DNA of 64,000 nucleotides from an uncultured Elusimicrobia bacterium. GTDB lineage: Bacteria; Elusimicrobiota; Elusimicrobia; 2-01-FULL-59-12. This document shows, one piece after another, positions 27,001 to 30,000 of this stretch (position 1 is its first letter; every line of letters begins with the position of its first letter). The position numbers were made by a program. Location of the stretch: NCBI GenBank assembly GCA_963702895.1, contig OY969767.1, positions 64,001-128,000 of the forward strand. Direction: 5' to 3'.

Positions 27001-30000
27001 ATCCTCGCCGAACAAAGCTTCCTGGACACCATCCGCCATCTCAAAGAACAGATCAAAAAAATCGATCAGGCCTTGGATCAACTGATCTCAAACCACCCCA
27101 CCATTGGCCCCATGGTGAGCTTGCTGCTCACCATCCCTGGGGTGGGCCGACTCTTGACGGCCCATTTGATGGTCATCAGCCAAGGCTTTACGCGATCCCT
27201 GGAACCCCGCCGCATCGCCTCGTATTTGGGCATGTGCCCACTCGAACACTCCAGCGGAACTTCCGTGCGCAAGAATGCAAGCTCTCGCGGGATCGGTCCG
27301 GACATCATCCGCAAGCTATTGCACCTGGCAGCCCGATCCCTTCGCACACATCATCAGCAGTTCAGGCACTACTTTGAAAGAAAAGTACAAGCCGGAAAAG
27401 CCAAACGCTTGGCGCTCAACAACATTGCCAACAAACTCTTGCGCATTATCTGTGCCGTACTGCGCACAAAGTCACCGTATCTTGCTGACTATAGGTCAGT
27501 CAATCCTCGGATCCTAAAAAATGCTTGACCGAGGTCATAGAAATCGGGGTGACGGCACAAAAAAGTGCATCGAGTTCAGACGATGAGGCAAAATGAACCG
27601 AAGATCTCCGGTTAGCTTCGGCCGCAGCAGGGGGCACTCATGAGGAGTCTCTTAGGCGCTGATTTTATCTACAAATAAAGTCAAAATGAGTTCTTGTCAA
27701 ATGTACTGGAAATAGGGCAACGCCCCTTTCGTTGAATGTCTCTTAGGCCGCGACCTCCAGCTTCTCTCTTTCCACAAATAGTACTTCAACCAATTCCGGC
27801 TTTGCGATCGGCTTCCAGAACTGCGCTAAACGCTCAATGACCTTGTAGACGAATGCCACGCCTGTTCGGGATTTCTGGAACCGGCGCACGACTCGCGTCC
27901 GCAACCGCACTCCCGCGAAGACCGACTCAATCGGATTGCTCGTCTTCAAATGGACCCAGTGCTCCTTCGGAAAGTCGAAGTACCTCAGCAACGTGTCATG
28001 ATCCTTGCGCACACAAGCCGCAGCCTTCGGATAGCGAATTTCAAGATCCTCAGCCAACAAGGCCAACTGGTTCTCCGCGTCTTCGCGGCGCTCCGCCTGA
28101 TAGGCCACCCGCAGGCGATTGAGGACTTCATCCTGCTTAGCCTTCGGCACTTTATCCACGACGTTGCGCATCTTGTGCTTCCAACACCGTTGATCCTTCG
28201 CCGAGGGATACACCTCTGCCACCGCCTCCCAGAGCCCTCCGATCCCGTCGCCGATGACCAACAGCGGAGCAGGCATACCGCGCTCCGCGACCCCTCTCCA
28301 GATTTCCTTCCAGGAATCCCGGCTCTCCCGGTAGCCTTCCATCAGCGCGATCAGTTCCTTCTGGCCTTTCGCGTTGACGCCCACCAGAACCAGAAGCGCT
28401 GTGTTCTCTTTTTCCAGCCCCGCTTTTAAATACACGCCGTCTGCCCAGACATAGGCGTAACGCGTCTCCGATAGGTCCCGGCGACTGAACGTAGCCAGGT
28501 CCGACTGAAACTTCGCCGATAGACGCAGGATCGTGCTGGCTGATAAGGTGGCTCCATCCCCGATCAGTGCTCGCAACGCCGGCTCAAAGTCCCGACTCGA
28601 GAGTCCCTCCAGGTACAGCCGCCGGAATAACTCCTCGACCCCTTCCGTCCGCCGCTGGTAGGGCCGCAAGATGCTCGACTCAAACTCGCCTCCGTCCACC
28701 TGGGGCACCGATAGCTTCAGCCCCGCCCCCAACACCGTCACCTTCCGCTCCCGCGTTCCGTTCCGATAGCCTTTCTCCAGATTCTTCGCCCGTTCATAGC
28801 GCCGACGCTCTAAATACATCGTCACTTCTTCTTCCAGGGCCTCCACCAGCATCTTGCGCGCTCCTTCACGGGCCAGATAATCCACCATGCTCTCGCCTTT
28901 GTGCTGAGTCCCTTTCTCGTTTACAATGGTTTCCATAACGGCGTCTCCTTTTCGTTTATTGTCCGCTCGAACGGACAGGTTTGTGTGTTTCAACGAAAGG
29001 GTACGCCGTTTCTATTTCCTAAGGCAAATCCTTCCTTGCCTTAAAACCTATTTCCAGCACTTTTGATGGTAACTCGTCAAAATCGATGCATAAGACCTAG
29101 TTCCTTATGGGCCCTTTAGGACAAGAAAATTAGCCCTCCGATCTATTTAAGCTCAGGTTCAAATCCCGCATAATTTACTATCGGTTCGGTCGCCAGACGC
29201 CTGGCGACCGCGCACGGAATTCATCATGAACAAACGCCTCAAGCGTCTCATCGCGCTCCTCCTTGTTTTCTGCCTCGTCGCGGATCCCGCCACGGCCGCC
29301 GCCTGGGGAGCTTTCGCGACGCGCCGGCCGGCGCCCGCCGCCGCGCCAAGCCTGTTTGCCGAACAGGCCCTGACTGCATACTTAACCCAGCACCGGAGGC
29401 CCTCCTTCGGCGAATCCGCTCACCGTATTGATAAAGAAACGGGCCAGGCTCGTGATCCTTTACAAACAAAACCTGATTCCGCATCGAGCGCCCCGCTGGC
29501 GCGCTCCTTCCGCGGATCTGTTCGCACGACTGCATTATTGGTTTTGGCGCTGGCCGTAGGCGCCCTGACCAGCCCGGCGGAAGCCAATCCCATAATCGCG
29601 GCGATGAATCCTCCGGCGATTGCCGGCGCGATTGCCGCCGGGGCAGCGCAGAGCGGCCTCGGGACGATCGTTGTCCCCATGGCCCAGGCGCTCCAGGCCC
29701 AGGAGTCCCCGCTCGCCCCGCAGGCAGTCCAGGAACGAATCAAGACGCTGGCTGAGCAACTCCTCACCCATCCGGAAGCCCGGATGCGGATCGCGGCCGC
29801 TCGAGAGCTGGGCCGGATTTCCGACCCGGCGGCGATCGACAGCCTGATCCAAGGCATCAGCGACCCCGAGGGAAGGCGGCAATACAGCACGCACCTGGAA
29901 TTTGGGGTGAAGGTGGTAAAAGGTGGGCGTGATGCCGGGGTCGTGTCCTGGGCGATGGAAGGCCTCATCAAAATAGGAGATCCAGCAGCAGATGCTGTTT

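Follow-up and report, generated by a model that had tools for sequence, protein, structure and literature searches.

Insertion of an IS256-family clade at a fixed distance upstream of a tandem palindromic operator in an uncultured Elusimicrobia bacterium

All nine IS256-family copies in the genome of an uncultured Elusimicrobia bacterium (GCA_963702895.1, contig OY969767.1) lie with one end 31-33 bp from the first palindrome of an operator next to a sigma70-type promoter, and targeting of this operator by their clade is well supported. This supports the survey's finding that the target is chosen by a set spacing from a regulatory site of the host, and independent metagenomic contigs now repeat the pattern with other IS variants. 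One copy lies in the window, the whole stretch of 64,000 nucleotides that was analysed, position 1 of which is contig position 64,001 (Table 1).

The IS256 copies and the operator beside them

The nine copies are located at contig positions 91688-93075, 807954-809341, 848267-849654, 1400526-1401910, 1731821-1733208, 2243138-2244522, 2249340-2250727, 2504174-2505561, and 2632611-2633995, exactly as the survey had placed them. Terminal inverted repeats and target duplications, as in the IS256 family, are present in the genome's copies. The duplications are all different (8 bp in five copies, 9 bp in three, 7 bp in one), and the left end faces the motif in four copies and the right end in five, which agrees with the earlier account of either orientation and differing duplications. 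Instead of the two subtypes in that account, three sequence variants were found (five identical copies, one at 89.0%, and three at 86.7%). Host genes are apparently spared at 8 of the 9 sites; one insertion lies 6 codons ahead of the stop in an aldo-keto reductase gene, and position therefore overrides gene content. Elements of the IS256 family transpose by copy-out/paste-in through a circular intermediate, as is assumed for these copies. Low-depth contigs from one DNA run, which may be the source sample, contained one known IS junction in a short-read contig and no circular IS joint.

The motif, previously read as spaced direct repeats, resembles instead an array of palindromes next to a sigma70-type promoter. 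It is composed of two tandem 16-bp palindromes (TRGGYC-N4-GRCCYA) with a 22-bp period, plus an upstream half-site, and abuts the promoter; it occurs across the class Elusimicrobia and looks like an activator site or array. A generic promoter scan at the window site found no strong consensus promoter, as expected because the -35 hexamer is weak, and no RNA family reached the gathering score there. Sites were counted with an iterated matrix: in the organism's own genome, 27 scored above 20 bits and 29 above 15. The survey's matrix counts (24 sites; 10 of 20 relatives' leader genes) were not obtained again in that form. When one mismatch was allowed, a lone 16-bp box was not enriched in the genome (84 versus 136 in the control). 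An initial, family-biased pattern, which matched 61 of 201 genomes over the phylum, was treated as a lead only, as control matches occurred in a similar number of genomes.

The description of the motif as heading tagged giant-protein genes stands for 13 ORFs of at least 1000 aa, all ending in Ala, among the 29 sites, but is too narrow, as only 3 of the 9 IS sites precede a giant gene and exported proteins in general are headed too. Motif-headed genes as a whole encode exported, giant, and pilus-linked proteins. Since the IS lands at a fixed distance upstream of what would be the sites of one regulator, it comes to lie next to the promoters of genes for exported and giant proteins.

Distances were measured to box 1 on one flank per copy, and the interval of 31-33 bp reported by the survey was obtained for 9 of 9 copies (offset 29-31 in the register of the analysis). 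Insertion is always on the promoter-distal side of the operator, which is left intact, and 59-73 bp separate the IS end from the -35. In a leave-one-out analysis, each held-out flank ranked between 4th and 67th of 5,448,992 positions, and the opposite flanks scored below -1 at the same offsets. A motif-free test with the side freely chosen gave a mean pairwise flank identity of 0.444, against 0.320 +/- 0.005 in shuffles (n = 9), with a z of 25 that is inflated because two flanks have about 30 bp in common. When one of that pair was removed and the side was picked by the analyst, the value was 0.460, and none of 2,000 random sets exceeded 0.351. Scoring with a matrix made from 20 IS-free sites put 8 of the 9 IS flanks at 25.7-39.4 bits and the weak flank (2249340) at 8.8; these scores are partly circular because those 20 sites first came from iterating on IS flanks. 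The survey had already singled out one weak site, and this one is a 1-bp spacing variant, in which the second box scores 17.9 bits and the half-site 8.5 bits. Among six other multi-copy mobile elements of the same genome, 0 of 30 copies were located within 150 bp of a site.

Table 1. Features of the window copy, its operator, and a second operator copy (window coordinates)
Feature	Position	Strand	Remarks
Target duplication, left copy	27680..27687	+	8 bp
IS256-family insertion sequence	27688..29075	-	1388 bp; one of nine copies; NF033543 301.7 bits (cut-off 150)
Right terminal inverted repeat	27688..27717	+	
Transposase	27743..28936	-	397 aa; Mutator/DDE fold, most like that of the ISCth4 transposase; no additional domain seen
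Left terminal inverted repeat	29046..29075	-	Motif-facing in the window copy
Target duplication, right copy	29076..29083	+	8 bp
Upstream half-site	29094..29099	+	GRCCYA type; right half of a degenerate third box
Box 1	29108..29123	+	16-bp imperfect palindrome; 32 bp from IS end
Box 2	29130..29145	+	22 bp after box 1; abuts -35 position
Putative -35-like hexamer	29146..29151	+	Weak; first T kept in 19/20 IS-free sites
Putative -10-like hexamer	29169..29174	+	TAnnnT class; 17 bp past -35; T 16/20, A 20/20, T 17/20 in IS-free sites
Giant leader/AA-tail gene	29226..36263	+	2345 aa; HEAT and TPR matches; served by the window promoter
Second operator copy	42290..42333	-	Without IS256; heads the 1480-aa gene at 37783-42225

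Relatives of the transposase, distance classes, and a second element

The window transposase also matches PF00872, and the most similar structure in Foldseek is ISCth4 (E 1.8e-20). Across 76 sequences, D166, E337, and H254 are invariant and D230 and C251 nearly so, which accounts for the DDE triad and the CxxH motif. A short-distance member of the clade, L110, scores 283.1 bits on NF033543 (cut-off 150) and 23.9 bits on ISKra4 (cut-off 205); the window transposase has no match to the ISKra4 or ISLre2 models among the matches listed.

Insertions in relatives, a gap named by the survey, were checked in 17 metagenomic relatives at 66-93% identity. The same motif lies beside the IS end in 9 of them (8 at 22-40 bits, 1 at 11.2), although 4 of these 9 contigs have no target duplication and may be chimeric across copies. 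The remaining 8 of 17 have no clear motif: two (L109, L121) have no flank on the contig, two (L106, L108) have a single flank from which the motif is absent, and four carry a partial motif (L115 and L116 at 1 in 3000 of the null, L122 at 4%, and L107, where it is interrupted by an IS1595 element, at 11%). No site above 20 bits was found in 141 other IS256 loci (643 kb), and five sets of distant multi-copy IS256 elements (22, 7, 4, 6, and 4 copies) had no common flank signal (z 0.4-0.9).

The targeted elements form one clade in a quick tree (SH-aLRT 100, stem 0.76), and the clade of 87 sequences has at least 65% identity inside versus at most 49% outside, with a FastTree support of only 0.795. 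Within it, the distance to box 1 tracks the transposase subclade and is either 31-35 bp or, one helical turn closer, 21-23 bp; all seven short-distance insertions fall within one subclade, and L119 is, like L110, a short-distance element. Upstream of one homologous gene, the IS of three elements are placed at offsets 29, 33, and 20. Close transposase relatives were not found in assembled genomes, with none above 36% identity (60 relatives) and none above 44% (genome collection). The IS-end pattern gave only two 1-mismatch matches outside G000 over 11 family genomes, and viral contigs had no match for the IS256 element or the second element described below.

Two of the nine sites share a flank, which the survey had interpreted as probably one duplicated insertion. 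This interpretation was abandoned: the two IS256 copies are of different subtypes, 1 bp separates the positions of their target duplications, and the 1.3 kb common to both sites is a second mobile element, inserted in the same operator with target duplications of its own, so both IS256 insertions are independent. This Mutator-type element (contig 2241869-2244544 and 2504151-2506829) lies between the half-site and box 1 in 2 of 2 copies, and its right tip ends in half-site sequence. Its transposase is 19% identical by profile, has an N-terminal zinc ribbon, and scores 22 bits on PF00872, just above the threshold of 21; scores on the family models ISH6 (47.1, cut-off 240), IS256 (46, cut-off 150), and IS1249 (36.8, cut-off 300) did not reach the cut-offs. 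On these profile matches, it is a member of the Mutator superfamily that belongs to no named family. It has 14 close protein relatives; 300 class and 400 phylum genomes yielded 1 distant match, a 35%-identical relative in G263, which is not at a motif. The target centres of the three insertion classes (-4.5, -15.5 to -16.5, and -25 to -27.5) lie on about one helical face, a match in phase that is estimated to arise by chance in roughly 1 of 12 cases.

A candidate regulator and the proposed positioning of the transposase

The boxes are quite probably bound by a class-wide NarL/DevR-like response regulator, which would activate the exported- and giant-protein genes. The best candidate binder is a protein of 237 aa (contig 713646-714377) with a PF00072 receiver and a PF00196 GerE helix-turn-helix, both above cut-off, to which DevR orthology was not assigned. 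Its best PDB match is DevR (E 3.6e-36), and it keeps the KTVKN recognition helix with the base-contact residues K-x-x-K-N; excerpts of PMC4082495 give the base contacts of DevR as Lys179, Lys182, and Asn183. According to the available part of PMC3177182, DevR requires tandem in-phase boxes at -42.5 and -63.5, and in our own comparison the OsdR consensus AGGGCCGATCGGCCCT (PMC5069765, in excerpt) agrees with the box at 10 of 12 specified positions.

The tandem motif was found in 42 of 110 class genomes with an orthologue of the regulator and in 3 of 41 without; counted by family (9/2/2/3), the co-occurrence is not significant (p = 0.24), and 68 of the 110 regulator-positive genomes have no match to the strict pattern. 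Bacillus subtilis DegU has the identical KTVKN helix but a different DNA target, which means that the site is not determined by this helix alone. The regulator's own locus has no strong motif (best 3.0 bits), and neither a DosS/DosT-type sensor nor a signal was identified; neighbouring ORFs were read by eye in 11 of 30 loci. Alternative binders include the 8 OmpR-type regulators, the second NarL-type protein, and others besides the CRP/FNR proteins, the one group that was profiled. None of the five family f8 genomes with the motif has a CRP/FNR protein, and such proteins occur in all 24 genomes of f4 and f6, two families negative for the motif; this distribution disfavours them.

We consider it rather likely that this Elusimicrobiota-associated IS256 clade integrates by position, at the upstream edge of a host activator array, made up of two tandem palindromes and a half-site, that adjoins a sigma70-type promoter. 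The regulator would occupy the boxes, the transposase would bind its own circular IS junction, and this transposase-junction complex is, on balance, expected to be positioned by the regulator-DNA complex, by protein contact or by phased, bent DNA alongside. The cut would fall on one helical face, with polymerase shielding the downstream side, and the likely effect would be a safe landing place at which genes and promoters are spared.

Direct reading of the operator DNA by the transposase, for example of the GRCCYA half-site and box 1, would need no host protein. It gains from the IS-proximal half-site, kept in three of four partial cases (L107, L115, L122), and from the right tip of the second element, which suits a targeting of end-like DNA. 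We nevertheless regard it as unlikely, since the IS256 flanks are no more similar to the IS ends than random DNA is (11-15 of 30 at best; null mean 13.2), a comparison by which the motif was also rejected as an IS256-end mimic. Moreover, the transposase carries no extra domain and, at a median of 399 aa against 417 aa, is shorter than outside relatives, the target duplications have no common sequence, and insertion is one-sided despite the palindromic boxes.

Tethering of the transposase by RNA polymerase, as proposed for TnGBS and ISLre2, is less probable again; here promoters would be picked as the most occupied, and the activator would merely move the landing point upstream. Each target is indeed a promoter with the -10 at a fixed place, and the same superfamily provides a precedent (PMC3942029, as excerpted), but 18 of 18 clear insertions are at one regulon and the IS end is much farther from the -35 than 15-17 bp. 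No sigma70 consensus was found at the TnGBS distance in the 18 flanks of the genome's own copies (5-8 of 12 matches; null mean 5.9), and spacing of the TnGBS type was rejected.

It is very improbable that insertion is random and that selection retained copies upstream of these promoters, either because such copies do no harm or because they provide a hybrid promoter. Such selection would fit the sparing of host genes at 8 of 9 sites and the ability of IS256 ends to supply -35 elements (PMC7780238, available part), but thirty copies of other elements persist elsewhere, an end would fall within a 3-bp window at 29 sites with p = 3e-5 per end, both IS orientations are found, about 100 bp separate the outward -35-like hexamer from the -10, the distance to the operator varies with the transposase subclade, and one insertion breaks a gene end. 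Duplication of a single IS-plus-promoter unit, or assembly error, suggested by the 1.3 kb common to two sites, has a negligible probability given nine distinct target duplications, three IS variants, the identity of that 1.3 kb as another element with its own target duplications, the recurrence in independent metagenomic contigs with other variants, and the junction in a short-read contig, which may be from the source sample.

Comparison with known systems and significance

With the IS256 family (p-MULT 1; IS256, ISCth4, PDB 6xg8) the elements share a single DDE transposase with CxxH, terminal inverted repeats of about 30 bp, a 7-9-bp target duplication, and the fold (PMC3942029 and PMC7780238, both in excerpt). 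As far as the available text goes, p-MULT 1 insertions are reported as random relative to promoters (PMC3942029, whose supplementary site tables could bear on this) and ISCth4 has only an A/T-rich target preference, whereas the clade described here hits the promoters of one regulon at a fixed distance and departs from the habit of random insertion. TnGBS ICEs, ISLre2 (p-MULT 3), and the ISKra4 group (p-MULT 4) also have Mutator-superfamily transposases and insert at a fixed distance upstream of promoters, for which tethering to the transcription complex has been proposed; excerpts of PMC3942029 place them 15-17 bp upstream of the -35 of sigmaA promoters generally, mostly in one orientation. 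In contrast, the present clade belongs to another family, inserts 59-73 bp upstream in both orientations and two distance classes, and uses only promoters with one operator.

The DevR/DosR and OsdR regulons share with the candidate a NarL-type regulator, the KTVKN helix, a similar 16-bp palindrome, and tandem boxes spaced by two helical turns, of which the proximal one is at -35, but the targets here are exported, giant, and pilus-linked proteins and not dormancy genes; no transposon targeting in those regulons is reported in the available parts of PMC3177182, PMC5069765, and PMC4082495. The engineered ISY100-Zif268 'Z-transposase' is likewise tethered to a site-bound DNA-binding domain and inserts at a set distance on one side (PMC2831304, excerpts). 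That protein is an artificial fusion, whereas the guide here would be a separate, natural host regulator. In Tn7, the TnsD/attTn7 system uses a DNA-bound, sequence-specific protein to set a fixed-offset insertion, and the targeting protein is encoded by Tn7. A DNA-bound protein likewise fixes the offset of yeast Ty3, a eukaryotic retroelement that uses Pol III factors (PMC3942029, in part). Unlike both, the IS described here encodes a transposase alone. In open-licence PubMed Central and bioRxiv, no publication was found that describes operator-directed insertion of IS256 elements or this regulon.

More tentatively, and with somewhat less than even confidence, a one-gene IS may dock on a phosphorylation-controlled host regulator and integrate only at its promoters, perhaps only with the regulon on, while a second, distant Mutator lineage may have converged on the same complex one to two helical turns closer. 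If true, this would be natural, transcription-factor-guided, signal-gated transposition in bacteria. Bacterial promoter-targeting elements described to date follow the general polymerase site, and the confinement of an IS to one regulon suggests that a sequence-specific transcription factor guides it. The test system would be small, with a transposase of 397 aa, a regulator of 237 aa, and about 60 bp of DNA, and the two natural distance classes offer a built-in means to map the targeting surface, for which a C-terminal helix specific to the clade and a shortened loop around residue 81 are candidates. The results also put forward one protein as the candidate master regulator of exported, pilus-linked, and giant proteins in a class whose members are mostly uncultured, and suggest that a DDE transposase may be aimed through a DNA-binding partner.

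The nine IS256 copies

The source genome is a single contig of 2.72 Mb, in which the window occupies positions 64001-128000 (features are listed in the table). All nine IS256 copies placed by the survey were recovered at full length; five are identical, one stands at 89.0% and three at 86.7%, and each has a separate target duplication of 7-9 bp. The reported spacing of 31-33 bp to the motif was reproduced on one flank of each copy when measured to the first palindrome (box 1), and corresponds to an offset of 29-31 in the register used here. The motif-facing end is the left one in four copies and the right one in five. 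In a leave-one-out analysis, each held-out flank ranked 4th-67th among 5,448,992 positions. Flank similarity gave z = 25 in a motif-free test in which the side was chosen freely and about 30 bp were common to two of the nine flanks; with one of these two removed and the side chosen by the analyst, similarity was above all 2,000 random sets. Six other multi-copy elements, with 30 copies between them, had none within 150 bp of a motif site, the closest copy being at 1,549 bp. The pattern is real and strong. One copy (contig 848267, locus L192:409-1500) cuts an aldo-keto reductase gene six codons ahead of its stop, which argues that the insertion rule is positional.

The motif had also been described as heading the genes for giants, the leader/AA-tail proteins of at least 1000 aa that end in Ala. 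Genome-wide, it does precede 13 such ORFs, the remaining motif-headed genes being mostly smaller with signal-like N-termini by eye, but only three of the nine IS256 sites precede giants; of the other six, one precedes a gene for a stand-alone receiver protein and five precede genes whose products match nothing in Pfam.

Positions of features in the window or on contig OY969767.1
Feature	Position	Remarks
IS256-family element	window 27688-29075	transposase NF033543, 301.7 bits; fold closest to ISCth4 transposase
IS110 copy	window 26286-27557	130 bp upstream of IS256; its other four copies far from operators
Candidate binder, NarL-type	contig 713646-714377 (L236:961-1695)	best PDB match DevR; KTVKN helix kept
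Second element with nested IS256	contig 2241869-2244544 (L198), 2504151-2506829 (L203)	both copies in operator
Short repeated elements	window 42408-42641; contig 460970-461126, 222543-222696, 730521-730715	25-150 bp upstream of four IS256-free operators
Stop-free frame, 13,707 codons	from window 8714 downward (contig 72714, minus strand)	without operator
HTH_3, sigma70 region 4, and receiver domains embedded in giants	contig 224424, 1104370-1104912, 1405058, 2391184

Promoter layout and candidate regulator

With a matrix iterated from the IS flanks, the number of motif sites was 27 at a threshold of 20 bits and 29 at 15 bits. Conservation across 20 IS-free sites picks out box 1 at columns 2-17 and box 2 at columns 24-39, separated by an AT-rich spacer, and a half-site further upstream at columns -14 to -8. 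Reverse-complemented sites average 3.0 bits versus -16.9 for shuffles, so that the site has dyad symmetry, and 27 of 29 sites show one register. Column 40 is T in 19 of the 20 IS-free sites, and the bases of TAnnnT at columns 63-68, spaced 17 bp past the hexamer that starts at column 40, are kept in 16, 20, and 17 of them. The hexamer and TAnnnT are read as the weak -35 and -10 of a predicted sigma70-type promoter, and box 2 abutting this putative -35 as the layout of an activator-dependent promoter.

Two NarL-type regulators are present in the genome. In the candidate, K203, K206, and N207 are invariant across 25 aligned orthologues; DegU has the same recognition helix and binds other DNA. 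DevR is reported to contact bases through Lys179, Lys182, and Asn183 (PMC4082495) and to depend on two boxes in tandem, in phase with each other, at -42.5 and -63.5 (PMC3177182), and the box agrees with the OsdR consensus (PMC5069765) at 10 of 12 specified positions. The candidate probably binds the motif; CRP/FNR, the one alternative that was profiled, fits badly as the binder.

Of 151 class genomes, 110 carry an orthologue (E 1e-50 or better), among them all 37 small genomes of family f8; in families f4, f6, and f11 the orthologue is found in 0/12, 0/12, and 2/15 genomes, respectively. The tandem motif occurs in 42 of the 110 orthologue-carrying genomes versus 3 of the 41 without one (one of the three is 73% complete); the genome-level p of 1e-4 overstates this co-occurrence because kin genomes are not independent, and by family p = 0.24. 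A tandem pattern (22-bp period, at most 3 mismatches) was present in 45 of 151 class genomes versus 3 with a reversed control. Matches in other families include the clean unit TRGGYC-N4-GRCCYA in tandem, but that search was treated as a lead only, since a control gave a similar result.

The candidate gene adjoins a Tad locus in the source genome, and in several other families (loci L248, L249, L254, L262, and L263) it lies between a receiver-domain gene and a pilin-like gene, the latter judged by eye from its N-terminus and without a Pfam or NCBIfam match. The regulon includes a stand-alone receiver protein that carries an AA tail (contig 809448-809861), suggesting that the signalling pathway is under feedback.

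Second element and transposase relatives

The flank shared by the sites at contig 2243138 and 2504174 had been put down as probably one duplicated IS256 insertion, a reading not borne out by their different IS256 variants and duplications one base apart. The 1.3 kb common to both turns out to be a second element, roughly 1,283 bp long, with inverted ends of ~30 bp, its own 7-8-bp duplications, and outer flanks that differ between copies. Its 375-aa transposase is Mutator-type with an N-terminal zinc ribbon, falls under every named family cut-off, and has 19% identity to the IS256 profile. Both copies lie between half-site and box 1, the half-site being restored by the right tip, and IS256 then entered the right end at its usual distance. 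Right-end-like words in the same register at 802633 (10/12), left of the 2243138 copy (9/12), and at 1417244 (8/12), with null rates of 0.0002, 0.001, and 0.01 per site, respectively, could be remnants of earlier insertions. In the three insertion classes the target centres (-4.5; -15.5 to -16.5; -25 to -27.5) all fall at phase 4-6.5 of the 10.5-bp turn, which is suggestive only, as there are just three classes. The second-element transposase has 14 close protein relatives; G263, the sole relative with DNA (35%), has different ends and no motif. P0041, an IS256-clade protein, and P0133, a second-element relative, are singletons from the same sources, on a contig whose 2,821 bp come close to the lengths of the two elements added together, which hints weakly at a further nested pair.

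Assembled genomes held only distant relatives of the IS256 element, and no flank signal common to the copies appeared in five distant multi-copy sets (22, 7, 4, 6, and 4 copies; z 0.4-0.9). A metagenome scan gave 80 loci, 17 at 66-93% identity (L106-L122) and the others at 47% or less. These 17 and the three own variants formed one clade in a quick tree (SH-aLRT 100, stem 0.76); with database proteins added, 87 clade sequences were at least 65% identical to the query and outside sequences at most 49% (FastTree support 0.795). The C-terminal F-x-D-G motif occurs in 0/87 clade sequences versus 22/56 outside. When relatives were scored with a matrix built from IS-free own sites, the motif adjoined the IS end in 9 of 17 (eight at 22-40 bits, L120 at 11.2), at offsets of 33 (L113), 30 (L114), and 19-21 (L110, L111, L112, L117, L118, L119, and L120); 141 other IS256 loci had no site above 20 bits. 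Partial motifs were seen at L115 (offset 29) and L116 (offset 24), both at 1 in 3000 of the null, and weaker ones at L122 (4% of null) and L107 (11%), the last interrupted by an IS1595-type element apparently inserted in box 1 (L107:1-240). L109 and L121 are on contigs without flank, and no motif was found on the single flank present at L106 and L108. Target duplications were not visible in four of the nine motif-positive contigs, which may be chimeric. Flanking genes at nine of the loci with near or partial motif match the source genome at ~48-84%, so the hosts are probably kin. A TATAAT-containing stretch is directed away from the IS at the L118 far flank, there upstream of a tRNA-like sequence judged by eye, and from contig 2633996 onward.

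Target choice

Insertion was on the promoter-distal side in 18 of 18 clear cases, in either IS orientation; clear insertions have a fixed offset and no common target sequence, and leave operator and promoter whole. The offset goes with the transposase subclade, the seven short-distance insertions falling without exception in a single one. Where elements precede one and the same homologous gene, the offset is 29 in the source genome, 33 in L113, and 20 in L118, so it is set by the element and not by the site.

Copy-out would come first, as assumed from the IS256 family (PMC7780238). Most probably, the regulator-bound array would then position the transposase-junction complex, through contact or phased adjacent DNA, while polymerase would cover the array's other side. 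Artificial tethering is reported to yield one-sided insertion at a set distance (PMC2831304). That the transposase itself reads the operator DNA is rather unlikely, as the IS256 flanks are unlike the IS ends and the transposase has no added domain. General tethering to polymerase is less probable still, leaving the restriction to one regulon unexplained and lacking TnGBS-type spacing. Selection alone is very unlikely indeed to make the pattern.

IS256 mobility has been described as widespread with selected hotspots, the available part of that source stating no target rule (PMC10266640), and no report of operator-directed IS256 insertion or of this regulon was found in the literature (mostly open-access, main texts). 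IS256 (p-MULT 1) is reported to insert at random, and p-MULT 3 and the ISKra4 group at a fixed distance from sigmaA -35 boxes, 15-17 bp on their upstream side (PMC3942029); those boxes are the target there, whereas here it is the promoters of one putative activator only. The element is a true member of the IS256 family that behaves in the manner of the promoter-targeting Mutator elements, with its insertions confined to this one activator's promoters.
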